DNA from: an uncultured Alphaproteobacteria bacterium
GTDB lineage: Bacteria > Pseudomonadota > Alphaproteobacteria > CAAHEQ01 > UBA3637
Length of the DNA stretch: 64,000 bases
NCBI GenBank assembly: GCA_934203105.1
Contig: CAKPYQ010000001.1
Coordinates: 37,270-101,269 of the forward strand
Direction of reading: 5' to 3'
Shown here: positions 18,726 through 64,000 of the stretch, in pieces
Numbering within the stretch: position 1 is the stretch's first letter
Layout of the letters: the number at the start of each line of letters is the position of its first letter
Notes under the pieces: generated by a model
Told to the model about the DNA's origin: nothing
Seen by the model: the letters and a program-made list of their open reading frames with translations, nothing else
Database searches by the model: none
Position numbers and translations under genes: made by a program

Positions 18726-18829
18726 TTTATTAACTCCTAGACAATATAGAATATACAAGACGCTAACACAATTTTTACTAAATTGCAAGAGTAGTTTTTG
18801 TTATTTTAAAAAACAGCGAAATAAAACGC

Positions 18830-22318: not shown

Positions 22319-22396
<78 letters not shown>

Positions 22397-22432: not shown

Positions 22433-22644
22433 AACATTTAAATACATGGAATGCGATTATATTTAGATGAACTAAATCCAACAGCAGGAAAACACAAAGA
22501 TTTATTACTTCCAGAGTGCGGAGTATTTTGTGAATTGGAAAAAGTATATTTTTAGTACCAGGCTTGAAGACATAATTCTAATATATACTGATCTCTATGA
22601 GGTTATTTTTTCCTACAATATGTTAATAACGGTTATTAAAATCA

Positions 22645-28784: not shown

Positions 28785-28792
28785 TTTAACCT

Positions 28793-29469: not shown

Positions 29470-29471
29470 TT

Positions 29472-30980
29472 TTACATCTCCCAGCCGATGGCTTTCAGTT
29501 TGTTTTTAATCTCTTCTTGCAAAGCATCAGACTGCCTAAACATCTCTGCAAGCTCTCCGGTCAGGCGTTTCATTTTATCTTCAAAAGGTTCACCGTCATC
29601 TTTCTGTTCCTCAATGCCAACATAGCGTCCAGGCGTCAAAATGTAATCCTGTGTCGCAATTTCTGCCGTTGTTGCTACCGCACAAAACCCTTTAACATTT
29701 TCCAACTTTCCTTTTTGAAATGCAGTAAATGTGTCTGCAATCTTTTTAATATCTGCATCCGTAAAATCGCGGTGTTTGCGGTCAACCATGTAGCCCATTT
29801 TCCGCGCATCAATAAAGACTGTTTTACCTTTTTGAGCTTTGTTTTTACTGATAAACCATAACGTTACCGGAATTGTTACACTATAAAACAGTTGTGGTGG
29901 TAGAGCGATAATACCCTCTATCAAATCGGCCTCAATAATATTTTTGCGAATTTCACCTTCACCGCTTGTTTGGGTAGAAAGCGCACCATTTGCAAGGACT
30001 AAACCGATTTTCCCATTAGGTGCTAAGTGATGTATCATATGTTGAATCCACGCATAGTTTGCGTTTCCTGCCGGTGGAATTCCATATTTCCAACGCACAT
30101 CATCTTGTAACTTATCCTGTCCCCAATTAGAAAGGTTAAACGGAGGATTAGCCATAATAAAATCAAACTTTTCATGCGGGTGCAGGTCATTAAAAAATGT
30201 ATCTGCCTGATATGGCCCGAAATCAGCATCAATGCCGCGAATAGCCATATTCATCTTGGCCATTTTCCATGTATCAGCATTGGATTCTTGTCCATAAACC
30301 GATATGTGGTCGCGGTTTCCGCCATGTGCTTGTAAAAATTTAACCGACTGAACAAACATACCACCGGAACCACAACAAGGATCATAAACGCGGCAATTAT
30401 CAAATGGTTTCAAAACCTCGACAATGGTTTTAACAATGCTTTGTGGCGTATAAAACTCACCGCCTTTGGTGCCTTCATATGCCGCAAATTGTGCAATACA
30501 GTATTCATAAGTTCTACCGAGTAAATCTCTATCTCCGTTGGTATCAGACATATCAATATTGTTTGTAAAAAGGTCAACAACATTGCCTAAAACACGTTTA
30601 TCAAGATCTTGATTGGCATAATTTTTAGGTAATACATTTTTAAGCGATTTATTTTCTGCTTCAATCGCTCGCATAGCATCATCAATAATAATGCCGATTT
30701 CCGGAGTGTGTGCCGCTTCAGCAATTTTACTCCAACGTGCGGCCTCAGGAACATAGAAAATACCTTCTTCAATATATGCATCTTTGTCGTTTTCAAAACC
30801 ATCACCTTCGGCGACAAGCTGATTATAGCGCTTTTCAAAGGCCGCAGAAATATAACGCAAAAAGATAAGTCCAATAATTACTTTTCGGTAATCTGCCGCA
30901 GGAATATGTCCCCAAAGTTCACAAGCTGCACCCCAGATTTGCTTTTCAAAACCTAAATTTGCATTATTTTTACCAGCCAT
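29472..30980 (-). CDS. hsdM: type I restriction-modification methyltransferase subunit (HsdM), N6-adenine
   Basis: The N-terminal HsdM domain (WGAACELWGHIPAADY) is present. The SAM motif is DPCCGSGGMF. The catalytic NPPF lies in IMANPPFNLSNW. Confidence 0.88.
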   Translation of the reverse strand: MAGKNNANLGFEKQIWGAACELWGHIPAADYRKVIIGLIFLRYISAAFEKRYNQLVAEGDGFENDKDAYIEEGIFYVPEAARWSKIAEAAHTPEIGIIIDDAMRAIEAENKSLKNVLPKNYANQDLDKRVLGNVVDLFTNNIDMSDTNGDRDLLGRTYEYCIAQFAAYEGTKGGEFYTPQSIVKTIVEVLKPFDNCRVYDPCCGSGGMFVQSVKFLQAHGGNRDHISVYGQESNADTWKMAKMNMAIRGIDADFGPYQADTFFNDLHPHEKFDFIMANPPFNLSNWGQDKLQDDVRWKYGIPPAGNANYAWIQHMIHHLAPNGKIGLVLANGALSTQTSGEGEIRKNIIEADLIEGIIALPPQLFYSVTIPVTLWFISKNKAQKGKTVFIDARKMGYMVDRKHRDFTDADIKKIADTFTAFQKGKLENVKGFCAVATTAEIATQDYILTPGRYVGIEEQKDDGEPFEDKMKRLTGELAEMFRQSDALQEEIKNKLKAIGWEM

Positions 30981-31233
30981 TTTATCTCTCTTCGCATTGA
31001 AACTATTAATAGATTGATATTCAAAAGTACTTTTTGTAGTATATTAATTTTCAATAAAAAAGTCAAAGAAAATGTAAAGACTTACGCTAAAATCTTTATA
31101 CTTTTGAGATAAATATCGTTAAACCACTGAGAGTCGACAAAATAAAAAATACAATTATTAATGAAGTTATGTTTAAAATGCAAATTTAGGATGCCTTTAA
31201 AATCAAAACTCATCCAATTTAACGTCTTGCCTT

Positions 31234-31701
31234 TTAGTCATTGTAACAATCCGTATTTTTCAGCACTTCTTTGGAATAAGAATTCTTATAAAGATTCATA
31301 TACATATCTGCAAAATCAAGGGTATAGTTTAATTGAAAAATTATAATAAATAATGCAACATGCAACGATGATATATATAGGAAATTATTATAGCTATAAT
31401 TAAAAGACAACACATTTAAAAAGAATAAAATAAGTAAAGAAAATAGAGACATCTTTAAGAATTTTTTATTATCACTAATAAAAATCTTAAACATATTACG
31501 CTTTTTCATATAGAGATTAATGTTTTGATTAGCATAGGCAGCCAAAAGAAATGACAGTGAAAAGGCAAAAATAATAGAAACACATGTAATTGCATCAGAA
31601 AGCAGGTTATCTTTTAAAGGAAATCCCAAACTTATTATTAACAAGAATAGCAATATCCATGTTCTTATTCTACATTTTAGCAAAAATTTCTTCGATTTCA
31701 T
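31234..31701 (-). CDS. small polytopic membrane protein (about 4 TM), unknown function, overlapping the upstream gene
   Basis: The start is placed at MKSKKF, preceded by the strong RBS aaaaggaagaaggatatt. There are four hydrophobic helices. The gene is very AT-rich and overlaps the upstream 251-aa gene by 32 bp in a different frame. Confidence 0.4.
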   Translation of the reverse strand: MKSKKFLLKCRIRTWILLFLLIISLGFPLKDNLLSDAITCVSIIFAFSLSFLLAAYANQNINLYMKKRNMFKIFISDNKKFLKMSLFSLLILFFLNVLSFNYSYNNFLYISSLHVALFIIIFQLNYTLDFADMYMNLYKNSYSKEVLKNTDCYND

Positions 31702-32425
31702 AATATCCTTCTTCCTTTTCAAATTCAAAAATTTCCTTTGCCACAACGCTTTGTTCATTAATAGAAATAAAACCATCAGAGCTTTCCCCTTTTATATTGA
31801 AACTTTTTATGTATGAAGGAGACATTAATTTCTCGTATAATTTTTTTATATACTTAACATTAAGCGCTCTTTTAAAATCCATTTTTACAACGGTTGTCTC
31901 GGGTTTTTCTTTTTCTTCTAAATCATCACCCCAATGAGGATTCAAAAATTCATTTATAAATAAGTTGTTTGTTGCGGTAATAGAAATTGTTTCTATTGAT
32001 TTCACCTGTTTGATAAAATCATCAATAGAAGTAGAAACGGCCAACAAATCACAAGAAAAATTCTTGTCCGTTTCATGCAATAAATTCAAAATTATATTTC
32101 TTTTATTATGATCTGAACTCAATACCTTATTTTGATAAATCACAAATATAAACTGATGCGTCATATGAACAATTTCATCTGACAAGACGCTGTCGTCATA
32201 AATCCTTTGATTCCTATTATAGCATCTATTGGGTTTTGATTTTCCATATGACACTAAAAAAACGATTTTATCTTGATCCATCATATGACGTATCGTATAT
32301 GTGGTTTCACGCAATGGGTAATCTATGATTTCTTTGTTTTGCAGTTTTTCTTTTAAAATTCGTGTTCCTGCTCCTAAAAGGTCAACACATTCCGGAATAT
32401 AACTAAACATACGCACAGAGCTCAT
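31670..32425 (-). CDS. hypothetical cytosolic protein (251 aa), AT-rich, unknown function
   Basis: No recognisable catalytic motif by eye. A glutamate-rich C-terminus (EFEFEKEEGYYEIEEIF) overlaps the downstream membrane-protein gene. Confidence 0.4.
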   Translation of the reverse strand: MSSVRMFSYIPECVDLLGAGTRILKEKLQNKEIIDYPLRETTYTIRHMMDQDKIVFLVSYGKSKPNRCYNRNQRIYDDSVLSDEIVHMTHQFIFVIYQNKVLSSDHNKRNIILNLLHETDKNFSCDLLAVSTSIDDFIKQVKSIETISITATNNLFINEFLNPHWGDDLEEKEKPETTVVKMDFKRALNVKYIKKLYEKLMSPSYIKSFNIKGESSDGFISINEQSVVAKEIFEFEKEEGYYEIEEIFAKM

Positions 32426-32587
32426 CGTTCTAATCCTTTCAATATTTTTGGTTTCTTATCTATCTCCACTAATGTTTGATATTTTAACAATTTATTCTAT
32501 CGTATCAACATTTGATAAAAAGGTCAAGTAAATATCGAAATTTGATAAAATTTTTATGTTTTTTTGAAAACACATCAATATCAATTG

Positions 32588-33487
32588 TTACAAACAAATA
32601 TTGATTAAAAGATTTTTCTTTTCCTGATAACTTTTTACTAAACTCAAAACAAAATCGTTAATGACTTCCGCCAAGGGTAATTTCCCTTTGTCAGTATAAA
32701 TAACCTGCGCAGTAAGACCGGCAAGCACTCTTTTTATTTCTGGTGTTAATTGCCCCATAAATGACCCCATTTTTAAAATATCCAAAACAGCCTGATCTGC
32801 AAAGGGGCGAAATGGTTCAATCAAATCATCAACAAGTGGCATTGTATTTGCCGATTGGCAATGCTTTAATCCCAAATAAGGTAATAACCCGTTAGCACAG
32901 ACGCTGCGCGCAACCATTGCCCGTAAAATTGTATAAGCATAATTTAAAAGCATATTTATATCTGCCGCATTGCGATTGCGAATAAAATCAGAACCAAATA
33001 ATTCATTAAAATAAAGATGCGCCGCCTGCCCTTCATTATTTTGCAGGTCATCGTTTTTAACCGTTTTTGACAACATTTGTAAACGCACTTTTATCGTCGA
33101 GTTCGGATGAACAAAAGCTAATAACTTAGCTTGATTGCTGATCTTCATTTGCACAATTTTCTTCCACAAATTTTTACGCAAGGACTCCGGCAAGGCCGTT
33201 TGCGCTTTAATTCTGGCCGACGTTAACCAATGCCCGACAATCGGTAAAGTTATTGCGGCAGGCATATATTTATCATTGCAAAAAATAAGGCATGCTTGAT
33301 TTTCACATAAAGCATTAACGATATTTTTTGAAATCAAAACATTATGTGCGGAAATAATTAAACATAAAATGCTATCCAACGGGATCTGATTAACTTGATT
33401 GGTCCGTACATCTGTAACAATTAAAAAACCTTTCGATAAAGAAAGTTTGAAATGATCAGACGATATTTCTATTACCCGTTTTAACAT
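32588..33487 (-). CDS. cas1: CRISPR-associated endonuclease Cas1, type II-family-like, apparently solo (no cas9/cas2/array in the window)
   Basis: 299 aa. Long collinear similarity to type II Cas1 as I recall it from Neisseria: NEGQAAHLYFNELFG..F.RNRN...INMLLNYAYTILRAMVAR......LLPYLGLKH......PLVDDLIEPFRPFADQ. The putative metal-binding E, H and D positions are present. GC content is lower than in the adjacent core genes. Confidence 0.8.
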   Translation of the reverse strand: MLKRVIEISSDHFKLSLSKGFLIVTDVRTNQVNQIPLDSILCLIISAHNVLISKNIVNALCENQACLIFCNDKYMPAAITLPIVGHWLTSARIKAQTALPESLRKNLWKKIVQMKISNQAKLLAFVHPNSTIKVRLQMLSKTVKNDDLQNNEGQAAHLYFNELFGSDFIRNRNAADINMLLNYAYTILRAMVARSVCANGLLPYLGLKHCQSANTMPLVDDLIEPFRPFADQAVLDILKMGSFMGQLTPEIKRVLAGLTAQVIYTDKGKLPLAEVINDFVLSLVKSYQEKKNLLINICL

Positions 33488-33490
33488 TAA

Positions 33491-34756
33491 CTACTTTAAT
33501 CCTAAATTGTCGGCGGTCAGCAAACCGGCGCCGGATAAAACCGAAAAATAAGCCGATATTTGCGCATGCTTTGCCCGCGTCAACGATACCTTCGAATCTA
33601 ATAATTCCTGCTCGGCATTCAATACATCTAATACCGTACGACGCCCGCGTTCCTGAGCGTCTCTGACGCCTTCCAACGCTAAACGATTTGCATTGATGCG
33701 CATTTGCGCTGTTTCTATCGCTGCACCTTGCGCTTGGTAAATATTCCACGCTTGACGCAACTTTTCTAAAACAATCCGCTGGGTGTGAGTGATATTTTCT
33801 TTTAAAGCAGATGCTTCATACTCGGCCTTATCCGTCCGTGCAAAAGCCGTTCCTTTATCATACAACGGCACCGTCAAATAAATGCCGATCCGGCCGTCGG
33901 AAACTTCGTCAATCACAGGAACATCTTTTAATTTCACGGCAGACGCTTTGATATCAATCGACGGCATATAGCTTTCACGCGACACCGTAACGTTGGATTT
34001 TGCCGCTTCGTATCCCGCGGCGGCAGCCAAAATAGCCGGATGCGATTTTAGAGCTGTCTTTTCGGCGTCATTAATTGACTTTGGGAAAAATTGCCGTGTA
34101 CCGTTTAATTCAATATCTGTATAATTTTCTTGCAACGATCCGTAAATTCGGCGGAACGTTTCCAAAGCATTTTCATATCCGGCATTGGCATCAATAACCG
34201 CATACTTTGCCAATTCTAAACGCGCTTTTGCTTGGGCTAAATCTGTTTTAGTCAGCACGCCGACTTTTTCTTTTTGCTCACACAAACTGAAATACTCTTC
34301 CAATACCTTTTGGTTATTTTTATCCAAATTCAATACTTCGCGTGCATTCAAAACATTGATGTAAGCATTAACGGCTTGCAAAAACACATCTTGTTCGGTC
34401 GCATATAAATTCGCCTTTTCCAAAACCGCCATACTTTTGGCTGCGTCAATTTGCGCCGTTGTTGAAAAGCCGTGAAAAATATTTTCCGATAACGTTATGC
34501 CAACCTGTTTTTGCGTATAGTCAAAATCCGTGTTATTCAATTTTGTTTTTGCACGTGCTATGCCGGCCGTTGCCCCGACGGACGGTTGCCAACCTGTACG
34601 CGCTAAATCAACTCCGGCCGATGCGCTTTTGACTTTCTGCCGCGCGGATAAAATCTGCGGGTTGGTTTGATAAACTTGCTGCAAAGCCGAATACATATCC
34701 GCATTTGCCGGCACACAAAATAAAAAGCAAATTAAAAACAGTAAATACTTTTTCAT
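33491..34756 (-). CDS. TolC-family outer-membrane efflux protein
   Basis: A signal peptide is followed by the two-repeat alpha-helical and beta-barrel OEP architecture (YQTNPQILSARQKVKSA...; repeated coiled segments). It is the last gene of the ABC-2 efflux operon. Confidence 0.8.
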   Translation of the reverse strand: MKKYLLFLICFLFCVPANADMYSALQQVYQTNPQILSARQKVKSASAGVDLARTGWQPSVGATAGIARAKTKLNNTDFDYTQKQVGITLSENIFHGFSTTAQIDAAKSMAVLEKANLYATEQDVFLQAVNAYINVLNAREVLNLDKNNQKVLEEYFSLCEQKEKVGVLTKTDLAQAKARLELAKYAVIDANAGYENALETFRRIYGSLQENYTDIELNGTRQFFPKSINDAEKTALKSHPAILAAAAGYEAAKSNVTVSRESYMPSIDIKASAVKLKDVPVIDEVSDGRIGIYLTVPLYDKGTAFARTDKAEYEASALKENITHTQRIVLEKLRQAWNIYQAQGAAIETAQMRINANRLALEGVRDAQERGRRTVLDVLNAEQELLDSKVSLTRAKHAQISAYFSVLSGAGLLTADNLGLK

Positions 34757-44932: not shown

Positions 44933-47140
44933 ATGAATAAAAATCAGCTATTAAACATCAAAAAAATGATTTTTGAGTTGGGGCGTGGGGGCAGCAAAAA
45001 TCATTTTTTTGATCGGGTGAATAACGTGCGGGAAGTTGAGAGATTCTTCGCTATCGCTCAGAATGACGATTGCGAAAACGCCAGCAAGAGGGGACGCGCC
45101 GTGCGAAAATTTTCGCGTCCCCTCTTGGATTGTTTTATTCGCCGTTATTCGGGAAAAAGCGCCCAAACACAAACCGGCCGGTCAATGCTTGAAATGCTGG
45201 GTGTGCTGGCGATCATCGGCGTGCTGTCGGTCGGCGCAATCATGGGCTTTCGGTACGCCATCAACCGCCACAAAGCAAACGAAACGATTTACGACGTTAT
45301 GCTGCGCGCGACCAACGTCCCGATGGCTTGGGACAATTACGCCGAGCTGCACGACTTTAAATATCTGTTCCCCGAGCTTCGTCCAAACGATGTCAATCCG
45401 GTCGGCTTTGCGGTTGAAACTTGGGCCGAACCTGCGACCAGCAAATACGCTTACCGAGTCGAAGTCGCGGACGTTCCAAGCGCTGTGTGCCGGCAAATTA
45501 TTGCTTTAAATCCGCCGGATATCTCGCTGTACAAAGCAGGCTCCGCAATCGATCGAACGGGCATTCATGCGACACAAAACGATTGCGGATCGGACAAAAC
45601 GAACATGTACTTTTTGTTCGAAGAAGGTTGGTTTGATCCTACGCCTGGTCCTGATCCAACGCCGGGTCCGGGACCGGAGCCGGGACCAGAGCCTGGACCT
45701 GAACCGGAATGCGCGACGAACAATGATTGTGCAGCGGGCCAAGTTTGCAAAAACGGCATTTGCGAAGAGTGTACTTTGAACTGTACAGGCGCTTGCGAGC
45801 GATTGAATGCAACGACTTGTTCGTGCGAGGTTTTAGCGGGATGCACGCCGTGCGCTGATGCCTCTGATTGCCCCTCCGGCAACTATTGCGATGAAGGCGA
45901 ATGTCAGACTTGTGATAAAACTTGCGCCGGCGCGTGTGAAGAATTGGATACCGCGACGTGTTCGTGCGTTGCTAAATCAGATTGCACGCCTTGTTCCGAT
46001 AGCTCCGAATGTGGCGACGGGCAATACTGCAACGGAGACAAGTGCGATAACTGCGATCTGACTTGCGACGGGGCTTGTGAAGAATTGAACACCGCGACAT
46101 GTTCGTGCGTTGCCAAGTCAAACTGTACGCCGTGTTCCGATAGCTCCGAGTGTGATGACGGACAATACTGTAACGGCGGCAAGTGCGACGGTTGCGATCT
46201 GACTTGTTCGGGCGCTTGCGAAGAATTGAATACCGCGACGTGTTCATGTGTCGCCAAATCCAACTGTACGCCGTGCTCCGATAGCTCCGAATGTGGTGAA
46301 GGACAATACTGTAACGGAGGCAAATGCGATACTTGCGATCTGACTTGTTCGGGCGCTTGTGAAGAATTGGACGCTGCGACGTGTTCGTGCGTTGCTAAGT
46401 CAAACTGCACGCCGTGCACCAGCAACGCAGATTGCGAAACGGGCAGCTATTGCGACGGCGTCGTTTGCACGCCGTGCCCCAGCGCTCAAAGCGGGTATGT
46501 GTGTTGTTCGGTCAAGCCGATCGACGGCGACAATCCGTTCGATCATGTATGGGTCGGCGATCCTTTGGGCGAGGGTTACTGCTGCACCAGCAAAGACGAA
46601 AGCGAGGAGTGTTGCACAGCCTATAACGCGGACTACGTTTACAAAGACGGTAAGTGTCAAGAATTTAAGTGTGACGACGGTTATCAAGCGGTAACGAATT
46701 ATGCTTCCGACGGCACAAAATCCGGCAAAGCCTGTTGCGAGGTGAAGGAGGATGAAACCTCTACAAACTCATACGGATGGACAAGACAATCAACAGGATG
46801 GACAATAGCAGGAGCCATTAACGGTAGTTGTTGTTCAGGATGGAGTTTTATAGGAGAAACTGAAGGAACTGTTGATTCATATCACACTGCTACTACATAT
46901 AACAATTCTTATGATTTAAAAACAAATGGTGGAGTAATGTATTGCGCTAAGCCGTTTAATTATGAAAAGAAAGTCTGGTATCCTGGACAAACAGATCCCG
47001 TGCAAGGCCCTAAGCGCGAAGATTATTATCCGAGCGCTTCGAAATATTGCTGTAAGACCAATTCTAGTTACGATAGTAGTACTACAACTTGTACATGTTC
47101 CGATTCCGGTGATCCGAAAAATGGATCGAGATGTGATTAA
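44933..47140 (+). CDS. giant cysteine-rich secreted protein, paralog of the 18896 gene, with prepilin-like segment (QTG|RSMLEMLGVLAIIGVLS) and 4 tandem 47-aa Cys modules; true start ambiguous
   Basis: A strong RBS (aaaaaggagataaaaATG) precedes 44933, but that start gives an 84-aa leader that runs through a palindromic repeat. Alternatives are TTG at 45125 or degeneration of the 5' end. Downstream there is a Pro-rich linker (PTPGPDPTPGPGPEPGPEPGPEPE). The repeat unit is CTPCSDSSECGDGQYCNGGKCD.CDLTC.GACEELNTATCSCVAKSN, and the C-terminal region is Cys-rich. Confidence 0.55.
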   Translation: MNKNQLLNIKKMIFELGRGGSKNHFFDRVNNVREVERFFAIAQNDDCENASKRGRAVRKFSRPLLDCFIRRYSGKSAQTQTGRSMLEMLGVLAIIGVLSVGAIMGFRYAINRHKANETIYDVMLRATNVPMAWDNYAELHDFKYLFPELRPNDVNPVGFAVETWAEPATSKYAYRVEVADVPSAVCRQIIALNPPDISLYKAGSAIDRTGIHATQNDCGSDKTNMYFLFEEGWFDPTPGPDPTPGPGPEPGPEPGPEPECATNNDCAAGQVCKNGICEECTLNCTGACERLNATTCSCEVLAGCTPCADASDCPSGNYCDEGECQTCDKTCAGACEELDTATCSCVAKSDCTPCSDSSECGDGQYCNGDKCDNCDLTCDGACEELNTATCSCVAKSNCTPCSDSSECDDGQYCNGGKCDGCDLTCSGACEELNTATCSCVAKSNCTPCSDSSECGEGQYCNGGKCDTCDLTCSGACEELDAATCSCVAKSNCTPCTSNADCETGSYCDGVVCTPCPSAQSGYVCCSVKPIDGDNPFDHVWVGDPLGEGYCCTSKDESEECCTAYNADYVYKDGKCQEFKCDDGYQAVTNYASDGTKSGKACCEVKEDETSTNSYGWTRQSTGWTIAGAINGSCCSGWSFIGETEGTVDSYHTATTYNNSYDLKTNGGVMYCAKPFNYEKKVWYPGQTDPVQGPKREDYYPSASKYCCKTNSSYDSSTTTCTCSDSGDPKNGSRCD
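45087..45126. repeat. palindromic element Q3 (aagaggggacgcg ... cgcgtcccctctt, 13-bp perfect arms, same loop core gcgaaaattttcgc as Q2), located inside the 5' extension of the second pilin-like ORF
   Basis: Read directly from the sequence. It is in frame with the 44933 ORF and translates as KRGRAVRKFSRPL. Confidence 0.8.
45843..46440. repeat. about 4.3 tandem copies of a 141-bp coding repeat (47-aa Cys module), very high nucleotide identity between copies
   Basis: Protein-level repeats read from the translation. The nucleotide copies, for example ...acgtgttcgtgcgttgctaagtcaaactg..., recur at a 141-bp spacing. Confidence 0.75.
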
Positions 47141-49798: not shown

Positions 49799-50173
49799 CT
49801 AATTTTTCTTCATCGTATCGGGGTAATCACCAGTTGATCCACCGCGATTTCCTACGTCAACAGCACCTGAAGTTGAATCAACAGTTACGTAGTCGATGAT
49901 CAAACCGGCGATCGCAACAATACCCAAACCAACGCACAATGCCGCGAACCATTTCCAGTTCAATTTACCGAAAATTGCAAAGAATGCCAAAACAATCAAA
50001 CCAAAACCGCCAACGATGAAAATCATCTTACGGGAATATTGGAACGCTTCGGAAACTTTAGTAAATGCGATACCCCAAGCAGTTTCAGATGAGCTAGTAG
50101 CAAAAGCATCGCCCGCCCACAACATAACGCCGGCCACCAAGGCCATTGCCATAATAGAGAATAATTTGTTCAT
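49799..50173 (-). CDS. putative TrbC/VirB2-family T4SS pilin-like protein (orphan)
   Basis: 124 aa. A long signal peptide ends in AFA. Two hydrophobic helices (MIFIVGGFGLIVLAFFAIFG and WFAALCVGLGIVAIAGLII) are separated by a short basic loop, which is the VirB2/TrbC topology. The segment GLGIVAIAG resembles VirB2 LGIVAIGI. No other T4SS genes are in the window. Confidence 0.4.
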   Translation of the reverse strand: MNKLFSIMAMALVAGVMLWAGDAFATSSSETAWGIAFTKVSEAFQYSRKMIFIVGGFGLIVLAFFAIFGKLNWKWFAALCVGLGIVAIAGLIIDYVTVDSTSGAVDVGNRGGSTGDYPDTMKKN

Positions 50174-54807: not shown

Positions 54808-55734
54808 TTAAAGGTTTGCAAAAATACTTAAAAAAAACAAACTGATAATCATCACCAATCCTGCTCTGGGCGATGTATAGTCTTTGTGATTGATGACGTG
54901 ATCATACAGCATAATCCACAACGGCGCCGTCAACGAAAGCGCATTGACATAGCCCGTGTTGGGGGTATAATCCAACGCAATCCCTTTGCTGATGATCAGC
55001 AAAACACTGAACAAAACAATCAACAAGCCAATATACATCACTTTTTGATTAAAGATTTCCTGAACGGCTCTTTTCATTGTCGGACGCTCGGTTTTAATGT
55101 AAAAATACAGATTGTAAAATCCGCTGACCAACGTCACATAAAATAAGTAATACACAATGCCTTCAAACAACAAATGGCGTTGCATAATCATTTGCGTCAA
55201 AGAGCTCATCAAAGACCACACGACCACGACCGGTAACATATAGCGCAACAATTCGCGCGTCAAAGGCGTTTTCAACATTTGAACATAAGAAGCAATTGCA
55301 CAGGCAACCGATACCAAAATAGCCAGCAAAATAAATTGCCTGTGCCATAAAGACAAAAAAACTTCGGGGTGCATCGTCCACCACAAAACCATAGACAATA
55401 AAATCGACAGCACCAAGACCCGTGATGTACCGGCGGCCCCGAAACGCGCGGAAGCAAAAAAGATGCGAGAATCATAAAAACCCGTCATCATACCTTGTAC
55501 AATCAACATAAAAACAAAAACAATGTCCCATTCAAACGGTGTAATCAGCACCAACGGAAAACAGGCAAAGGCGACACCAAAGCCACGCCAAAGCCCCAAA
55601 ACATAACCATTGACTTTATTGTTTTGGTTAATGTAGGTGTAAAAGCTCATAAACAGTCCGTAAAACAGACCCGTAATGACCCATAACATAAACGGCACCC
55701 CTTTCCTATCCAAAGGAAAAGATAGGCCGCGCAT
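54808..55734 (-). CDS. hypothetical polytopic membrane protein (about 9 TM)
   Basis: Hydrophobicity only. No motif recognised. Confidence 0.4.
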   Translation of the reverse strand: MRGLSFPLDRKGVPFMLWVITGLFYGLFMSFYTYINQNNKVNGYVLGLWRGFGVAFACFPLVLITPFEWDIVFVFMLIVQGMMTGFYDSRIFFASARFGAAGTSRVLVLSILLSMVLWWTMHPEVFLSLWHRQFILLAILVSVACAIASYVQMLKTPLTRELLRYMLPVVVVWSLMSSLTQMIMQRHLLFEGIVYYLFYVTLVSGFYNLYFYIKTERPTMKRAVQEIFNQKVMYIGLLIVLFSVLLIISKGIALDYTPNTGYVNALSLTAPLWIMLYDHVINHKDYTSPRAGLVMIISLFFLSIFANL

Positions 55735-56444
55735 TAAAACTTATCAAGCAGGTAAGCGGCGCACGCGATCAAAACGATATGCAACGGGTAGTAAACATAA
55801 AATATCCACCAACGGCGCAACAACCTTGGCTCTGATACGGGATAAACAAACAACAACAATCCGATCGTCGTTATAAGTGACACCACGCCGCCCCAAGATT
55901 CGTTGATCATTGCGGAAAATATCAAACAAAAGACAATCCAATCGGGCGTTTGACGGCGAAAATAAAAGTAAAAGCAAAGAATAAAACAAAATCCCGCAAA
56001 GCCGTAATCCGATAAAACCGACGTTCCGCCGGCAATAGCAATGACACCCCACAATAAAACGTACTTGATAAAGGTATTCAGCGGACTGTTTTCAATCATA
56101 TAAATCAGGTAAAGCGCCGCCACGGCGATCCAAAAGCTGATCAAAATATTAAACGGAAAAGCCAATGAAACGCCAAACAATCCGTGTATCGGCGCAAAGA
56201 TGAAAAATGAAAGCACGCCGAAATACCCCAATCGCATCAGATACTTTTTATATCCGGACAAATCCATTTGCGCCAAATGCAACATCATCAAATAAGCAAA
56301 TATCGGAAAAGCCGTCCGCCCGATTAAATACATCGCCGCATTAACTGCTTGCGGAACATCGATAAAGTGCCTTAAATGGTCGCAAGTCATCGTCACCAAA
56401 GCGATTATTTTTAAAATATCTTGATTGATTGCAAGCCGTTTCAT
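55734..56444 (-). CDS. TraX-family membrane protein (F-pilin N-acetylase-like family)
   Basis: The N-terminal LKIIALVTMTCDHLRHF matches the TraX family signature (LK.IA...M..DH). A polytopic membrane profile follows. Confidence 0.5.
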   Translation of the reverse strand: MKRLAINQDILKIIALVTMTCDHLRHFIDVPQAVNAAMYLIGRTAFPIFAYLMMLHLAQMDLSGYKKYLMRLGYFGVLSFFIFAPIHGLFGVSLAFPFNILISFWIAVAALYLIYMIENSPLNTFIKYVLLWGVIAIAGGTSVLSDYGFAGFCFILCFYFYFRRQTPDWIVFCLIFSAMINESWGGVVSLITTIGLLLFVYPVSEPRLLRRWWIFYVYYPLHIVLIACAAYLLDKF

Positions 56445-56558
56445 CTTTTGTCCTTAATTTTTTTAGCTTTACTTTAAAATAAATCTGTAAAAAAGTATAG
56501 CTTTTTTATTTTTTTTGTTTTATTTTTAAAATAGGGACAATAAAAAAAGGTGGATAGA

Positions 56559-57536
56559 ATGCATACATTAGTCATAGGCGGAGCCGGTTATATCGGATCT
56601 CATGTCGTTAAAGAGTTATTGAAAAACAATGTCAAAGTGACTGTTTTTGACGATTTATCGACCGGACACGAAATCAATTTATTTCCAAATGCGCACTTTA
56701 TAAAGGGCAGCATTTTGGATACGGACGCGTTGGGACGCGCGATGTGCCAAAACGTTGACGGTGTTATCTTTCTGGCCGGCAAAAAAGCGGTCGGCGAATC
56801 GATGCAAAATCCGGCAAAATACGCTAACACAAACTTAATCGGCGCGGTTAATGTGTTAAATACGATGTTGGAATGCAACGTTAAAAAGTTTATATTTTCG
56901 TCTTCGGCTTCTGTTTACGGAAAGCCGCAATACTTGCCGATTGATGAAAATCACCCGATCAATCCGATGAGTTTTTACGGTTACACCAAACAAGCAACGG
57001 AACAGCTGTTGCATTGGTACAGCAAATTAAAAGGCATTCGCTTTGTTGCGTTGCGTTATTTTAATGCCGTCGGATATGATGCAAACGGCGACATTAAAGG
57101 ATTAGAAAAAAATCCGCAAAACTTGCTGCCCATTATTATGGAAGTTGCTTGTGGCGTGCGCCCGCAGTTGAGCATTTACGGAAACGATTATGAAACATCG
57201 GACGGCACATGTATTCGCGATTATATTCACGTTACGGATTTGGCCATCGCACATTATGACGCATTAGAATATTTAAATAACAACGGGAAAAGCGATATCT
57301 TTAACTTGGGAACAGGCAAAGGCTTTTCCGTATTGGAAATGCTGCAAAAAACAGAAGAAGTCATCGGGCATAAAATCCCGTGTTCCTTTACGTCGCGCAG
57401 AGCCGGAGATCCGGCGGTCGTTGCTGCCTGTGCCGACAAAGCCAAAAAAGTTTTAAATTGGCAAGCACAAAACAGCGATTTAGAAAATATCATCAAAACA
57501 ACGTGGGCAGTATATAAAACCAGTCAAATTAAATAA
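56559..57536 (+). CDS. galE: UDP-glucose 4-epimerase
   Basis: The Rossmann motif is VIGGAGYIGSH. The catalytic YGYTK region (YxxxK) and the overall SDR-extended pattern match. The RBS aggtgg is 6 nt upstream. Confidence 0.85.
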   Translation: MHTLVIGGAGYIGSHVVKELLKNNVKVTVFDDLSTGHEINLFPNAHFIKGSILDTDALGRAMCQNVDGVIFLAGKKAVGESMQNPAKYANTNLIGAVNVLNTMLECNVKKFIFSSSASVYGKPQYLPIDENHPINPMSFYGYTKQATEQLLHWYSKLKGIRFVALRYFNAVGYDANGDIKGLEKNPQNLLPIIMEVACGVRPQLSIYGNDYETSDGTCIRDYIHVTDLAIAHYDALEYLNNNGKSDIFNLGTGKGFSVLEMLQKTEEVIGHKIPCSFTSRRAGDPAVVAACADKAKKVLNWQAQNSDLENIIKTTWAVYKTSQIK

Positions 57537-57611
57537 CAATCCAAACCCATAAAAAAAAGCGGAAAAGTTTATTGCTTTTCCGCTTTTGTTTTTGTCGCAA
57601 ATCTTTACGGC

Positions 57612-58517
57612 CTAATAGCCTTTTAATTGCTCTTCCAAACTTCCCGGAATAAAGTCAACCAAAGGTCGTTCAATCATCGTATAAGCACCGAATTGTTCCG
57701 ATTGTTTTGCACGATATGCCGCACGGACTGCACCAACCAAAACATTGGCCGTCATCAACGGATTTATCCCTTCGATCGAATACTTTTGTGCAACATCAGG
57801 AGCAACACGCTCTAACAGGCCACCGTGATTGAGCGTATCGTATTCGGAAACATCTTTAACGGCCACAACATCCGTCGGATCATTTTTAAAATAATCATCT
57901 GTACGAATAGCCTCTGCAACCGCGTTAAAATCCGCATTGTCTTGCAATTCGACATAAACCAAACGTTTTTGAAGGCCTGCACCGTTCGGAAGCGTTAAAG
58001 AAACCGCATCTTTTACTCCGCTGATTGCTTTTACGGCCGCCGTATGGCCCATGCTGCGACCGCCTTTTTCACCGCCGAAAGTCGTTGTCGTCACCGAATG
58101 CGGACAAACAATTTGCATCAAACAACGCACAACGGAATCGCTGCCCGGATCCCAACCGGCACCGAAAATAGAAACGGCTTTATTTTCCTTTGCAATCGCA
58201 TCCAAACGCTTTTTGCTTTCGATGATTTTGTCGTGAATGTCAAAGCTGTCCACTGTCGAAATACCCAACTTTAAAGTTTCGGCAACACGATCACCCGCCA
58301 ATCTGGACGGCACGCATACCAAAGCCACATCAATATCTTTTAATGCCGTAATATCAGATACCACGGTCACATCGGCCAATTCTTCGTCAACATTATTCAA
58401 AGACGAAGAACGACGCACAACGCCAACCAATTCCATATCGGCTGTTTCATCCAAAACATATTTACAATAACGTCCTACATTTCCCCAACCTATAATAGCT
58501 ACTCGAATATTTTCCAT
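57612..58517 (-). CDS. ddh: meso-diaminopimelate D-dehydrogenase (Ddh)
   Basis: The N-terminal IRVAIIGWGNVGR and the GAGWDPG motif match Corynebacterium-type Ddh as I recall it. Length 301 aa. Confidence 0.65.
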   Translation of the reverse strand: MENIRVAIIGWGNVGRYCKYVLDETADMELVGVVRRSSSLNNVDEELADVTVVSDITALKDIDVALVCVPSRLAGDRVAETLKLGISTVDSFDIHDKIIESKKRLDAIAKENKAVSIFGAGWDPGSDSVVRCLMQIVCPHSVTTTTFGGEKGGRSMGHTAAVKAISGVKDAVSLTLPNGAGLQKRLVYVELQDNADFNAVAEAIRTDDYFKNDPTDVVAVKDVSEYDTLNHGGLLERVAPDVAQKYSIEGINPLMTANVLVGAVRAAYRAKQSEQFGAYTMIERPLVDFIPGSLEEQLKGY

Positions 58518-58519
58518 AC

Positions 58520-59977
58520 TTATCCTTTCAGTTGTTGGTACAACGAATAATATTTTTTAGCTGAACGTCCCCAAGAAAAATCTTGTCCCATAGCGGTCTT
58601 GATCATATTATCCATATGCACCGGCCGGTCATAATACGTCGAATTTGCCCAACCGATTGTGTTGTATAAAGCGCCGGCAGATATATCGTAAAACTTAAAT
58701 CCGGATCCTGTTCCGTTACTTTCATCATAATTTTGAACAGTATCGGCCAAACCGCCCGTCGAACGGACAATCGGTAATGTTCCGTACAGTTGGCTGTACA
58801 TTTGCTTTAATCCGCACGGTTCATAAATCGACGGAATTAACGTAAAGTCACTGCCTGCATCAACCAAGTGCTCCAAAGGCCCGTTGAAACGATTAACGCT
58901 GATGCGGCCCGGATAATAATTTTGCAAATTTCCCAAATAAGCTTGCGCCCATACTTCGCCGTCGCCCATAATCAAAAATTGAGCCTGCATATTACGCAAA
59001 ACACCTTCGATACATTCGGTAACCATACGAATGCCTTTTTGCTCGCTTAAACGCACGCACATCGAAAAAATCGGCATATCATTATGTTCCAAACCAAAAT
59101 GATCTCGCAAAACTTTTTTATTTTTGGCTTTACCTTCCTTAAACGATTTGACATCGTACGGATAAGCAATATTCGGATCTTTCATCGGATTCCACAAATC
59201 CAAATCGATGCCGTTTAAAATACCCGAAACATCTTTTGCCCGCTCTTGAAGCAACCAATGCAAGCCGGCGCCGCCCAAAGGCGTCATAATTTCTTCGGCA
59301 TAGTGCGGGCTGACCGTCGTGATTTTATCCGCAAAGCGAATCCCGCCCTTTAACAAATTAACGCGACCGTAATTTTCAAACGCATACATATTAAAATCGT
59401 TCCAATCGATTTTGGCGTAATTTAAAACGTCCGCATTATAAATGCCTTGATACGGCAAGTTGTGGATCGTCAAAACGCTTTTGGTATCAGCAAAGAACGG
59501 ATTGCCGTCTTTTTTCAAATAATACGGAATAAGCGCCGTTTGCCAATCGTGCACGTGCACTACATCCGGCTGATAGCCCATATCTTGCGTCAACTGCAAA
59601 GCGGCACGACAAAAGAAAGCATAACGATAAGCATTGTCTTGATATTCTTCGTGAGTGTTTTTATCGTTATACACGCCATAACGATCAAAATATTTATTAA
59701 ATTCAATAAAATAAGCATCATAATGGCACGGCGTTTCGGCATGATAAACGCTGTACCATTCTTCGCAATTTCCCATTTTGACACAGCAACCGTCATACAT
59801 TTTGTGCAGTTGATATTTTTCACGGTCAATTAAAGAATAAAGCGGTAAAATTAACTTAACATCAGCACCCTGTCTTTTCAAATACTTCGGCAAAGCAGCC
59901 GCAACATCGGCCAAACCTCCGGTTTTAATGAACGGAGCCGCCTCACTGGCGACGAACAGGATTTTCATTTTTGACAT
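58520..59977 (-). CDS. glgA: glycogen synthase (ADP-glucose transglucosylase)
   Basis: MKILFVASEAAPFIKTGGLADV carries the K-T-G-G-L signature. Length 485 aa. Confidence 0.9.
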   Translation of the reverse strand: MSKMKILFVASEAAPFIKTGGLADVAAALPKYLKRQGADVKLILPLYSLIDREKYQLHKMYDGCCVKMGNCEEWYSVYHAETPCHYDAYFIEFNKYFDRYGVYNDKNTHEEYQDNAYRYAFFCRAALQLTQDMGYQPDVVHVHDWQTALIPYYLKKDGNPFFADTKSVLTIHNLPYQGIYNADVLNYAKIDWNDFNMYAFENYGRVNLLKGGIRFADKITTVSPHYAEEIMTPLGGAGLHWLLQERAKDVSGILNGIDLDLWNPMKDPNIAYPYDVKSFKEGKAKNKKVLRDHFGLEHNDMPIFSMCVRLSEQKGIRMVTECIEGVLRNMQAQFLIMGDGEVWAQAYLGNLQNYYPGRISVNRFNGPLEHLVDAGSDFTLIPSIYEPCGLKQMYSQLYGTLPIVRSTGGLADTVQNYDESNGTGSGFKFYDISAGALYNTIGWANSTYYDRPVHMDNMIKTAMGQDFSWGRSAKKYYSLYQQLKG

Positions 59978-60124: not shown

Positions 60125-61198
60125 TTAAGCGTTACTTTCGGCTTCGGTTTCGGTTAAAGTTGTCGTCGCCGGGGTTAAAGCCGGAGTTTGAGTTGGTGCT
60201 TTTGCCTTCAATAAATCTTCCAATACGGGCAAATCGTCGCCTTTTGCCTCATCATCAAGCAAAGCCACAACACCTTTTTTAGCCTGCCACACCGGCGCCA
60301 TAGCCGATGCATTCAATAACGTCCCGCGTGCCAAAACAACCGTCGGGATAACTTCCGAATCCGGCTCTTTTTCCCGCAGCAATGCACTGGCTTTTTCCAT
60401 TAAATAAAACGGAGAGGTAATCAAACCTTGCGCCGAAAACCAAGTCGGCTCTAAATCGTCATCGGCGGCATCTTCATCGGCAATCCATTCGCGGTCTGCC
60501 GTTAAAAAAGACATCATAAAAGCAACACTGTCCGTAGCCAAAACCAACGCAACATTTAAATCGTCCAAACGCACATTTTCAAATAATTCGTATCCGTATT
60601 TAGCCCCCAAAGCTTTAATTTGTTCGGCTAATTCAGGGGTCAGCGCATCAACGGCATCTGCATCAACAGCGCTCGCCATTTTAGAAATTTCATCTGACAA
60701 GTCGTCGTTTTCATTTTCGGCCGATTGATTTTGTGCTTTTTGTTGTTCGGCTTGCTTTTGTTGTTCGGCCAACGCCAACGCGGCGCCGCCAAATCCGCGC
60801 ATTTTAGGCATTGCCGCCGGCCGAGCAGTCATACTTTGCGCCACAACCGGTGTTTTTGGCAAAGGCGCAGCATGATGATGCCGCATATTTAAGAAAGGTT
60901 TGAAAATCAAGTGCAGCCAATGGACTTTACGCACCCAAAGCCACAGGCCGAACCAAACGGGAAAATAAAATAAAAAAACAAAAAAGATCAACAGATTTTT
61001 TGGCGAATTCACAGCCCAATTATCATATTGAAAACGCATATAGAGCGTATACCAGTCAGAAAAAGGATTCAAAAAAACTTCTTTTGTCGAATACGAAAAA
61101 CAAGCAAACGGAGAATAGCCCAAATAAAGGCCGATTAAACTGCCTCCGACGCATAAATATAAAAAGCTGTACAACAAAAACAAAAAGAAATTGCGCAT
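60125..61198 (-). CDS. hypothetical membrane-anchored protein with acidic/Ala-rich cytoplasmic or periplasmic domain
   Basis: Two or three N-terminal TM helices, a Gln/Ala-rich linker (EQQKQAEQQKAQNQ) and an acidic C-terminal domain. No family recognised. Confidence 0.4.
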   Translation of the reverse strand: MRNFFLFLLYSFLYLCVGGSLIGLYLGYSPFACFSYSTKEVFLNPFSDWYTLYMRFQYDNWAVNSPKNLLIFFVFLFYFPVWFGLWLWVRKVHWLHLIFKPFLNMRHHHAAPLPKTPVVAQSMTARPAAMPKMRGFGGAALALAEQQKQAEQQKAQNQSAENENDDLSDEISKMASAVDADAVDALTPELAEQIKALGAKYGYELFENVRLDDLNVALVLATDSVAFMMSFLTADREWIADEDAADDDLEPTWFSAQGLITSPFYLMEKASALLREKEPDSEVIPTVVLARGTLLNASAMAPVWQAKKGVVALLDDEAKGDDLPVLEDLLKAKAPTQTPALTPATTTLTETEAESNA

Positions 61199-61307
61199 AT
61201 TAATCCTTTCTTATTTTTTAAATCATAACAATATTTAAAATAAAAAACAAGAAAAAATTAAAAAAGCCCCGCAACATAAGTACGGGGACTTTTTTTAATC
61301 GGCAAAC

Positions 61308-63599
61308 TTAGCGTTCTGCGCCGGTATTTTCGATCGAAATCGAACGATTGACATCTGCCCGCGGCATACGCGCCAACTTTAAAGCTTCACGGTTGGCAGA
61401 TACTTCGGCTTGTTGGCTTCTGACCCCGGCCGCCGCAGTTGAGAAATGACCTATTTCATTTTTCAAAGCCGCCGGCGTCGTTACGGAAATCGAAAAATCA
61501 TGCGCTTGCGACAGATTCATTTTCGGACGTTCAGACAAAGGCTTTGTATCAATCGCAATCATTTGATCACGTCCGCTTTGCGTGGTACGCAACATTGTCG
61601 GATCAACTTGCAAGTCCTCCGCTTTTATCGGTTGTTCCGGCGTCGGTTGTTCCGGTGTCGGCTGCTGTGGCGTTGGTTGTTCCGGTGTTGGTTGCTGTGG
61701 CGTTGGTTGTTCCGGCGTCGGTTGCTGTGGCGTCGGTTGTTCCGGTGTCGGCTGCTGTGGCGTCGGCTGTTCCGGTGTCGGCTGCTCCGGCGTCGGTTGT
61801 TCCGGCGTTGGTTGCTCCGGTGTCGGCTGCTGCGGCGTCGGTTGTTCCGGTGTCGGTTGTTCCGGTGTCGGTTGCTCCGGTGTCGGCTGTTCCGGTGTCG
61901 GTTGTTCCGGCGTCGGCTGTTCCGGTGTCGGTTGCTGTGGCGTTGGTTGCTCCGGCATCGGCTGCTCTCGTCTTTGCTTTTGCCGACCCAATCGTTCGTA
62001 TTCCCCGCCTTTCATCATCGATTTAGACGTATCCGCTAACTTTTTCAACGTTGCATTTGTCGGCGGATGGCCGTACGTTTGGAAATATCCGTAATCTAAC
62101 ATACGATTACGCAATTCTTCCATTTGACCTTTGCTTAAATCGCCAATCATACGCCCGTCTTTATCAAACTTTAATTTCAAACCGTCCAATAACTCGGGAT
62201 GTTCTTTGCGCAATTTTGCGGCCGCTTCCGGCATATTTCCGCAGCTTTCAATAAAAAGCTGGTGCACCGATTCAAATCGATCGTGCGCGCTCATTCCGCG
62301 AGCATCAGCCACGGTTTGATCATATTGTTCTACTTTGTCTTGAATATACTTTGTTTTTTCCTTAACCTTTTCGGCGGCCAAATCCAAGCCCCATGCGACT
62401 TGGTTAGGCAAGTAAAGCAACGCGCGGATAAACAAATTTTGGAAAGCTTGTTCCGGCGATTTTGCTTTTGAAAACTCTTCGACTATTCCCCAAAACGAAT
62501 TTGCATGATTACGTTCGGCAATTTTTTCCCGTGCTTCTTCACTTAATTTAAAACCTTCGGAAAAGTCCATGCCTTCACGGACGGGAGGTTGATTTTCGGG
62601 TTTTGACGCCGGCCCCGGCACATACGGTTCGGCCGGCGTATCGTTATTGTTGCCGTCCGGAGCATAATAGTATGGTCCGTTATTGGGCACATTGCCTTGA
62701 ATAGTAATCGGGGCAGCCTCCGCCATTTTTTGCGGATCATACGTAAAGTTATCATTTTCCAAACTGCCATCCACTGTAACGCCCGGTGTTGTCGGTGTTT
62801 CGCCCGTCGTTGCCATTGATGGTGTTTGTGGAATAGCTCCGTTTATCGTCGCGCCATTTTCCATTAAGCGATCAGCTTTCGGCTTATCAGCAATACTGAC
62901 TTTGTCGGGATCGTAAGTGTATGGACTTTGCTCGTTACCGGTAACAGAGATATTGTCCTTGCTGTTTGAAAACAACGGCGCGCGATACGTCGCATCTTGC
63001 GCATTGTTTTGTTCAAACGGATTGCCCCCCAACAATTGCACGGCTTTTTGATGAGCAACCGGTTCCAATTCGCTCCAAATCGTATTCAAATTATCCATAC
63101 GATTTTTATCGTAATCAATAACAGCTTGGCGTTCATCAAAAGCTTTTTGCGCTTCTTTTAAATACATCGAATCTGTACTGATGTTTCCCGTATTCAACGC
63201 TTTAATTTCATCGGTATTCATCAAAAAATCAGCCTGTTCTTTGGTCAGGTTTTCAATATTATCAACACCATAGTGTGAAGCCGCCAAACTTTTAAACACT
63301 TCCTTTGCTTTGGAGGAAGAAAGCGTTTCCAACTTTGAAAAAGCGTCCGGATCTCGGATCGGCCGAATTTGTGCGTTCAAATCCAATAAAGCTTGCTGCA
63401 CATTCGGCGATAATTCACGCTCCGGATTGATTGTCAACGAACTCATAAATCCGATCGGCGCTTTGATAAAATCGGCATAATTTTCCGCCGAGCTTTTCGA
63501 TAAAAACTCTTTTGCTTCCGATGTACCGATTTCCTCATCGACGTGCGCCGTACTGATGTTTTTGTAATCGTCCAGCTGTTGATTGTATCCGTCTGCCAT
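61308..63599 (-). CDS. large hypothetical protein with about 22 tandem PTPEQ pentapeptide repeats near the C-terminus
   Basis: 763 aa with no signal peptide. The C-terminal stretch ...QPTPEQPTPEQPTPQQ... runs for about 110 residues and is encoded by 15-bp tandem repeats. Confidence 0.5.
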   Translation of the reverse strand: MADGYNQQLDDYKNISTAHVDEEIGTSEAKEFLSKSSAENYADFIKAPIGFMSSLTINPERELSPNVQQALLDLNAQIRPIRDPDAFSKLETLSSSKAKEVFKSLAASHYGVDNIENLTKEQADFLMNTDEIKALNTGNISTDSMYLKEAQKAFDERQAVIDYDKNRMDNLNTIWSELEPVAHQKAVQLLGGNPFEQNNAQDATYRAPLFSNSKDNISVTGNEQSPYTYDPDKVSIADKPKADRLMENGATINGAIPQTPSMATTGETPTTPGVTVDGSLENDNFTYDPQKMAEAAPITIQGNVPNNGPYYYAPDGNNNDTPAEPYVPGPASKPENQPPVREGMDFSEGFKLSEEAREKIAERNHANSFWGIVEEFSKAKSPEQAFQNLFIRALLYLPNQVAWGLDLAAEKVKEKTKYIQDKVEQYDQTVADARGMSAHDRFESVHQLFIESCGNMPEAAAKLRKEHPELLDGLKLKFDKDGRMIGDLSKGQMEELRNRMLDYGYFQTYGHPPTNATLKKLADTSKSMMKGGEYERLGRQKQRREQPMPEQPTPQQPTPEQPTPEQPTPEQPTPEQPTPEQPTPEQPTPQQPTPEQPTPEQPTPEQPTPEQPTPQQPTPEQPTPQQPTPEQPTPQQPTPEQPTPQQPTPEQPTPEQPIKAEDLQVDPTMLRTTQSGRDQMIAIDTKPLSERPKMNLSQAHDFSISVTTPAALKNEIGHFSTAAAGVRSQQAEVSANREALKLARMPRADVNRSISIENTGAER
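61630..61965. repeat. about 22 x 15-bp tandem repeat (YGGYTGYTSYGGYGT on the plus strand) encoding PTPEQ/PTPQQ
   Basis: Read directly from the sequence. The unit is nearly perfect with wobble variation. Confidence 0.85.
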
Positions 63600-63678: not shown

Positions 63679-63969
63679 TTAAGCTTTTATTTTTTTAACA
63701 AAAGCACCTATTTTTTTGTTAATGTCTTTTGCGTCAGCAATGGACAAGATCCGTTTGCCGTTTTCGTCTTCGACGATAATCGGAGAAAAGAACGCCGGAT
63801 TTTCAATCAAAACGTCCCATGCTTTTTGAGCATCTAAATCCGCCATATTCAAATAATTTCTAAACAACCGTTCGGCATTAACCGGAAAGTTTTCCGGCGC
63901 CATTTTAGAGGCAAAACTGTCAATAATTTCTTTGCGGCGACGTTGGAAATTACGCAATTTTTCGTACAA
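63679..63969 (-). CDS. hypothetical small protein
   Basis: 96-aa ORF. No motif recognised. Confidence 0.3.
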   Translation of the reverse strand: MYEKLRNFQRRRKEIIDSFASKMAPENFPVNAERLFRNYLNMADLDAQKAWDVLIENPAFFSPIIVEDENGKRILSIADAKDINKKIGAFVKKIKA

Positions 63970-64000
63970 AGATAAGCCCTGCGATTGAATTTGTTGTTGT

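Follow-up and report, generated by a model that had tools for sequence, protein, structure and literature searches.

An in-frame PTPEQ repeat of strain-variable copy number in an orphan acidic protein encoded near type IV secretion-like genes of an uncultured alphaproteobacterium

A stretch of 64,000 nucleotides of an uncultured Alphaproteobacteria bacterium (contig CAKPYQ010000001.1, assembly GCA_934203105.1), hereafter the window, carries at 61308–63599 on the minus strand a gene for an orphan protein of 763 amino acids (aa), hereafter the target. The protein contains 22 tandem copies of the pentapeptide PTPEQ and its variants, encoded by in-frame 15-nt units, and the number of copies differed among orthologues that are otherwise nearly identical. 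The array lies between a conserved helical core and a conserved C-terminal tail, at a position that each lineage of a small protein family fills in a different way. Proline-rich spacers of this kind, in frame and variable, are a well-known feature of bacterial proteins; the protein family and the genomic island beside it are uncharacterised and constitute the more interesting part of the finding. The target is a largely disordered, modular, lineage-restricted acidic protein, and the array is tentatively read, with a little less confidence than doubt, as an acidic spacer of variable length, in a protein linked to a secretion-like machine of the envelope.

The gene and the modules of its product are listed below with the predicted local distance difference test (pLDDT) values obtained with AlphaFold2 (AF2).

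61308–63599, minus strand: target gene, a single open reading frame (ORF) for an orphan protein of 763 aa, with the stop codon at 61308–61310.
63000–63599, minus strand: N-terminal region, residues 1–200, predicted helical at low confidence (AF2 pLDDT 27–73).
62583–62999, minus strand: disordered acidic region, residues 201–339, with short recurring motifs (pLDDT <40).
61962–62582, minus strand: conserved helical core, residues 340–546, which carries the family signature.
61632–61961, minus strand: PTPEQ/PTPQQ array, residues 547–656, 22 in-frame 15-nt units (pLDDT ~30).
61311–61631, minus strand: conserved C-terminal tail, residues 657–763, with the pattern RPxMNL..AH..TTPxxLK..NRxAL..ARxPR in alignments.

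An earlier sequence-only reading of the window, made without database searches, had placed the array at the C-terminus and had taken the rest of the protein for one unique hydrophilic domain lacking a signal peptide. The array is followed by the conserved tail of 107 residues and is not terminal; the remainder is hydrophilic and without a signal peptide, as had been stated, but is composed of at least four parts and not of a single domain.

In codon register, the 22 units were one PMPEQ, 15 PTPEQ and six PTPQQ, in agreement with the earlier count of about 22 within a single ORF. Tandem Repeats Finder (TRF) delimited the array at 61628–61967, with a period of 15 (22.3 copies, 78% matches, score 360) or of 30 (86% matches, score 421). 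The units had been described as perfect or near-perfect repeats, a description that does not hold: they comprise 13 distinct 15-mers that share on average 82% identity in pairwise comparison, and exact internal repeats reach at most 35 nt in the window and 39 nt in the array of a second strain, L001. All five third-codon positions of the unit showed an A/G polymorphism, while among the ten first and second codon positions only one varied appreciably (G/C, giving Glu or Gln), apart from a single Thr-to-Met change. The peptide unit has thus been kept while the DNA drifted, a pattern predicted by purifying selection on the peptide and not by recent perfect duplication.

The 15-nt unit is free of stop codons in all six frames, and the three overlapping ORFs with low-complexity translations on the opposite strand (61439–62094, plus strand) are therefore artefacts of the repeat, as had been supposed. 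A phase-variable on/off switch was also considered and ruled out, since the unit is in frame, the array lies inside the ORF and every variant keeps both the frame and the tail. A literature search on ‘PTPEQ’ returned irrelevant matches only.

The 90%-identity cluster of the target contained 13 distinct orthologue sequences from other assemblies, all of them derived from metagenomes or metagenome-assembled genomes (MAGs). These orthologues carried 8, 13, 16, 17, 19 or 22 units with differing Glu/Gln patterns and were approximately 98–99% identical outside the array, so the length variation anticipated from the repeat structure is supported by the available sequences. Between the window and L001, 23 of 1962 nt differed in the coding flanks (~1.2%; ~98.8% DNA identity) while the order of the DNA unit types was unrelated between the two arrays, which indicates that the array turns over much faster than its flanks. 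With a unit length that is a multiple of three, a strain-variable copy number and conserved flanks, the array qualifies as a protein variable-number tandem repeat.

Assemblers often collapse tandem repeats that are longer than a read and, as every variant came from metagenome or MAG assemblies, the differences in copy number could be short-read assembly artefacts around an array of constant length. This explanation was considered highly unlikely: the longest exact internal repeats fall below the length of ordinary reads and of large k-mers; the metagenome contig L082, a separate European Nucleotide Archive record, did not differ from the window at any of the 2693 nt compared, the 22-unit array included; several array lengths recurred in more than one contig; and the variants differed in unit order and Glu/Gln pattern, not in number alone.

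The exact 763-aa protein was already present in public collections. In the flanks of the array, comparison with L001 gave 16 synonymous and 7 non-synonymous codon differences; this excess of synonymous changes, together with the conserved relatives described below, indicates a real coding gene and rules out a non-coding or spurious ORF. The protein is acidic and very hydrophilic (isoelectric point, pI, 4.77; grand average of hydropathy −0.95) and has one Cys. No hydrophobic segment was detected, the best 19-residue Kyte–Doolittle mean being only 0.98, at residue 389, and for this reason neither a signal peptide nor a transmembrane helix is predicted. The N-terminus, MADGYNQQLDDYKN, showed no signal peptide or lipobox in this hydropathy check, for which no dedicated predictor was run. 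The tail has a pI of 8.8 and one low-confidence helix (residues 709–743). Its last 30 residues, examined by charge and alignment as a possible C-terminal signal of a type IV secretion system (T4SS) substrate, are mildly basic (pI 10.6, net charge ~+2), and an NRxAL..ARxPR motif is conserved.

To place the target among known proteins, homology searches were carried out, and no known homologues were recognised in Pfam, NCBIfam or PDB; PHROGs and PADLOC gave no match either. The searches thus disclosed no known housekeeping factor, and the repeat number differed among the assembled orthologues. Ten relatives compared with Pfam gave chance-level matches only, and family profiles had no significant match among PDB sequences (best E 0.66 in one search, and 0.012 over 42 residues in another). 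Among 5.8 billion proteins, a word-indexed search detected three clusters related to the target. When 1.84 billion representative proteins were searched exhaustively with an HMMER profile, 18 matches were obtained, two of which resembled low-complexity noise, leaving about 16 credible relatives. The target was not found among 185,579 species-representative genomes. In a separate observation, the leucyl-tRNA synthetase of the window (16197–18788, minus strand) had a best identity of 65% among the matches listed from those genomes, and the organism is apparently poorly represented there. A mobile-element origin was tried and rejected, as no plasmid match was obtained for the target (tblastn) or for galE, the diaminopimelate (DAP) dehydrogenase gene and glgA (56550–59977; megablast).

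The members of the family share a common plan, with a variable N-terminus, a disordered acidic motif region, a core of about 200 residues, a hypervariable Pro/Gln/Ala-rich linker and a tail of about 105 residues. The N-terminal region is found in some members only; in the alignment it was common to the target and P0039/L090 and absent from P0002 and P0003. The region corresponding to residues 201–339 contains the conserved motifs [FY]T[YV][DN]P..K and NI[ST]V[DN]G (in the target, [FY]TYDP..K and I[ST]V.G), which differ in number between members and are multiplied in, for example, P0040, P0038 and P0003. The linker between core and tail consists of the 22 PTPEQ units in this species, of about 45 AQ/P-rich residues without a repeat in P0039/L090, of a 22-residue repeat in P0003, of a 33-residue repeat in P0038 and of a PQ-rich stretch in L088; the PTPEQ motif was absent from every other family member in the alignments. 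As each lineage fills the same position differently, the PTPEQ array is best described as this species' version of a spacer conserved in position and free in sequence. The proline-rich spacer proposed in the sequence-only reading is in this respect borne out, since the relatives have unrelated Pro/Gln/Ala-rich filler there.

The orthologue P0044 of a related MAG (L086 7362–9911, plus strand) has no PTPEQ array. A 23-residue stretch of the core, GLxLQFDSxGKVxxxxSDDQKK, occurs once in the target but is repeated ten times in tandem in this protein instead. A PQ-rich stretch precedes its core, and repeat expansion strikes different places across the family.

The core was modelled from an alignment of 14 sequences with a pLDDT of 89 and a predicted template modelling score of 0.75, as a helical bundle around a helix of 52 residues. 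It had no specific structural match among solved or viral predicted structures (Foldseek E ≥0.37). The full-length AF2 model, based on three aligned sequences, was poor (pLDDT 43, with array and tail at ~25–35), and its Foldseek comparison with PDB was uninformative.

The surroundings of the gene include the following features, the last of which was read in the contig L082.

63637–63665, minus strand: promoter-like site TAGACA-17-TATAAT with TG, by consensus match only (11/12), 38 nt upstream of the start codon.
61258–61287, minus strand: intrinsic-terminator-like hairpin and T-run (7-bp stem with 5 GC pairs, CTTTTTT tail), 21 nt past the stop codon.
63679–64000, minus strand, same direction as the target: 3' part of an upstream gene for a 215-aa protein, which runs off the window end; this end corresponds to L082 position 9600, inside the gene 9274–9921.
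60125–61198, minus strand: downstream gene for a 357-aa membrane protein, a conserved neighbour that is probably not in the unit of the target.
55734–56444, minus strand: TraX-family pilin acetylase (Pfam PF05857, E 1.1e-26).
49799–50173, minus strand: TrbC/VirB2 pilin (Pfam PF04956, 29.5 bits against a cutoff of 27.9).
L082 2845–9153, minus strand: three tandem multi-pass membrane paralogues, just past the window end, also present in L086, L088, L090, L091, L092 and L093.

Wherever a related locus retains the upstream gene, the product is 215 aa long; this protein is without a signal peptide and shares only a 10-residue motif with a 281-aa protein. Beyond this gene, a divergent operon, read in L082 and L091, encodes the three multi-pass membrane proteins, a Pro-rich protein with a signal peptide, a regulator with two helix-turn-helix (HTH) domains and several orphans, one of them a lipoprotein, but no ATPase. 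The three membrane proteins are mutually paralogous (E 9e-26 and 3e-19) and have a conserved CxxC motif, and one of them bears a long hydrophilic extension. Their only recurrent Pfam match was PF04610 (TrbL/VirB6), obtained for 4 of 10 sequences, the lowest E value being 2.5e-6; the first member, at 19 bits, fell short of the cutoff of 25.9. A loop P-x7-[FT]-x2-T-x7-W was found in 6 of the 10 paralogue and orthologue sequences and is close to the motif tabulated for RvhB6. The VirB2 and TraX genes lie within 12 kb of the target, among housekeeping genes. The T4SS flavour of the neighbourhood is real but incomplete.

The 357-aa protein combines a membrane domain at its N-terminus with a conserved soluble domain at its C-terminus and has no family match. 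Its gene always adjoins glgA, also in L087 and L089, which are without the target and the island; owing to this retention and to the terminator-like hairpin in between, it is probably outside the unit of the target.

Several further observations on the island were made. The signal-peptide Pro-rich protein contains four copies of TDGSGTPPPPP in L082 (6377–7771, minus strand) and five in L001 (6354–7781, minus strand), making it the second repeat of this island whose number of copies varies. The regulator (L082 1828–2745, minus strand) has two HTH_3 domains and a weak S24-peptidase-like C-terminus (E 0.018), reminiscent of LexA/CI-type mobile-element repressors. A 477-aa lipoprotein was tried as a candidate secretin and rejected for want of Pfam support. 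In the relative L086, a gene near the locus codes for an ankyrin-repeat protein. Taken together, the VirB2, TraX and VirB6-like genes give the appearance of scattered T4SS components, as in Rickettsiales.

Every family member with a readable context, the most distant included, was located at the same locus next to glgA, in related uncultured Alphaproteobacteria. Identities to the window species were 84–94% for GlgA, 65–83% for DAP dehydrogenase, 44–63% for the 215-aa protein, 36–51% for the downstream 357-aa protein (a fast divergence), 30–47% for the first VirB6-like protein, 22–44% for the target and 21–32% for the Pro-rich secreted protein. The target is consequently the fastest-evolving gene of the locus except the neighbouring Pro-rich protein. 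The island, the 215-aa gene and the target were jointly present in L082, L086, L088, L090, L092 and L093. In the related genomes L087 and L089, on the other hand, glgA and the downstream membrane gene remain and the VirB6-like operon is missing along with the 215-aa gene and the target, which indicates that the block is gained or lost as a unit and is dispensable. No observation speaks more strongly for a functional link between the target and the island than this joint presence and absence.

The PTPEQ array is an in-frame minisatellite and would encode an extended, negatively charged, proline-rich spacer, probably of polyproline-II-like conformation, between the helical core of about 200 residues and the C-terminal module of about 105 residues, with its position fixed in the family and its sequence and length free. 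The five-residue repeat may gain and lose units by unequal recombination or slippage, which would give the 8–22 copies seen among strains, and selection would hold the peptide unit constant. The target may work with the T4SS-like envelope machinery as a tethered adaptor or a substrate, and the spacer would then set the distance between two interaction modules. An association with this machinery is suggested because the target is gained and lost with the divergent operon of the three VirB6/TrbL-like proteins, the Pro-rich protein, the lipoprotein and the HTH regulator, with VirB2 and TraX genes nearby.

Several points weigh against a length-variable spacer in a protein of a secretion-like machine. 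No Sec/Tat-export signal, membrane anchor or recognisable secretion domain was detected in the target by hydropathy and family scans, and the gene is flanked by a promoter-like site and a terminator-like hairpin of its own. The assignment of the membrane paralogues to VirB6 depends on sub-threshold Pfam matches, and their profile matched no VirB6 chain in PDB; no VirB4, VirB8–11 or VirD4 was found within ~20 kb upstream of the island or among the annotated genes of the window. The copy numbers come from metagenome assemblies. Finally, the genomes compared are closely related, as their GlgA identities indicate, so that synteny is weak evidence and may reflect common descent.

A translocated effector, delivered by a type IV or another system into a eukaryotic or bacterial cell, is an unlikely alternative. 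The PTPEQ units would in that case act as PxxP/SH3-type, WW-type or Thr-Pro phosphorylation motifs, with copy number tuning avidity. Such a role would be in keeping with an acidic, disordered protein that has short linear motifs and basic last 30 residues, with a divergence (22–44% identity against 84–94% for GlgA) exceeded at the locus only by that of the Pro-rich secreted protein, with T4SS-like genes nearby and with the ankyrin-repeat protein encoded near the locus in L086; the PTPEQ unit is also under purifying selection and not simply an arbitrary linker. However, PTPEQ is absent from all other members and hence is not a conserved function, the gene occurs once, at a fixed syntenic place, whereas effector repertoires are typically patchy, and a coupling protein or ATPase was not found nearby (~20 kb upstream of the island). 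The surface or secreted effector-like nature suggested in the sequence-only reading was not supported by any signal peptide, anchor or secretion domain; such support as it has is contextual, from the nearby VirB6-like, VirB2 and TraX genes, the fast evolution and the mildly basic end of the protein.

Similarly doubtful is a cytoplasmic scaffold or regulator without a role in secretion, for which the proximity of the VirB6-like genes would be inherited gene order. Disordered linkers comparable to the Pro/Gln-rich linker of the target occur in FtsK, ZipA and PopZ. The lack of a signal peptide or transmembrane segment, the separate promoter-like and terminator-like sites, a constant partner gene whose product is always exactly 215 aa long and also lacks a signal peptide and the location of all relatives at one locus in closely related genomes agree with such a protein. 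Its very fast divergence would, however, be unusual for a housekeeping scaffold, and the absence of target and island from L087 and L089, which keep the flanking genes, shows it to be dispensable.

More improbable still is a stronger version of the secretion link, according to which the whole block (215-aa protein, target, three VirB6-like proteins, Pro-rich protein, lipoprotein and other orphans) would form an undescribed envelope machine derived from or related to a T4SS, with the target as a fast-evolving, length-adjustable substrate or ruler whose reach is under diversifying selection from host or phage.

The length-variable spacer preferred here has parallels in known proteins. PspA and PspC of pneumococci contain repeats of the PAPAPKPEQ type, and similar wall-spanning spacers are known. 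As in the target, short P-x-P-E-Q-like units form acidic or neutral, proline-rich, strain-variable repeats between two modules; the pneumococcal proteins differ in having a signal peptide and a choline-binding or LPXTG anchor in a Gram-positive cell, whereas the target has neither and belongs to a Gram-negative lineage. TonB and TolA have proline-rich or helical spacers that span the periplasm. In both cases a rigid proline-rich segment joins an N-terminal module to a C-terminal interaction domain, as in the target, which in contrast has no N-terminal membrane anchor and no TonB_C or TolA domain (Pfam, NCBIfam).

The tandem repeat proteins (TRPs) of Ehrlichia are tandem-repeat effector proteins, and FliK and YscP are rulers in which length is functionally meaningful. 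The target resembles them in being acidic and disordered, with in-frame tandem repeats of strain-variable number; it has no sequence or domain similarity to them, no T3S4 domain (Pfam) and no adjacent genes of type I or type III secretion systems. Unlike in these proteins, its repeat is a lineage-specific filler and not a conserved feature.

With regard to the surrounding genes, the closest comparison is the rvh T4SS of Rickettsiales, in which three to five rvhB6 copies are the rule and the RvhB6 loop motif has been tabulated (PMC10732058). The operon next to the target is similar in its three tandem VirB6/TrbL-like paralogues, one with a hydrophilic extension, in a similar cytoplasmic-loop motif and in the scattered VirB2 and TraX genes. 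It differs in its sub-threshold VirB6 matches, with no adjacent virB3 or virB4 and no ATPase within ~20 kb of the island. To our knowledge, the target has no counterpart in the rvh system.

The repeat itself is thus a familiar phenomenon, a proline-rich in-frame linker of variable copy number. It nevertheless marks an unannotated family of about 16 members among 1.84 billion representatives, with a confidently folded core that has no specific structural match, and a conserved, rapidly diverging island of three VirB6-like paralogues and orphan envelope proteins in poorly known gut Alphaproteobacteria. Should the island prove to be a secretion-type machine, the obvious candidate for its substrate or adaptor would be the target, and the series of 8–22 units would represent a natural experiment on spacer length. 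Additionally, the array could be used to type strains of this uncultured species.

Other features were observed elsewhere in the window. A low-GC block at ~22600–33500 (0.30–0.32) contains a type I restriction–modification system (hsdR 22645–25698, hsdM 29472–30980) and a Cas1 gene (32588–33487), adjoins a tRNA-Met gene (22319–22396) and was probably acquired horizontally. A 12-nt repeat in 4.4 tandem copies (13312–13364) lies within an orphan 413-aa ORF (12246–13487, minus strand). Two large orphan proteins (18896–20899 and 44933–47140, both plus strand) are prepilin-like at the N-terminus (GRSMIEML..AIIGVLS) and cysteine-rich in the body that follows; the second also has a 141-nt tandem repeat in 3.5 copies (45929–46417) and a PG/PE-rich linker (45634–45707). 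Genes resembling these orphans take the place of the island in L087 and L089, and another is present in L091.

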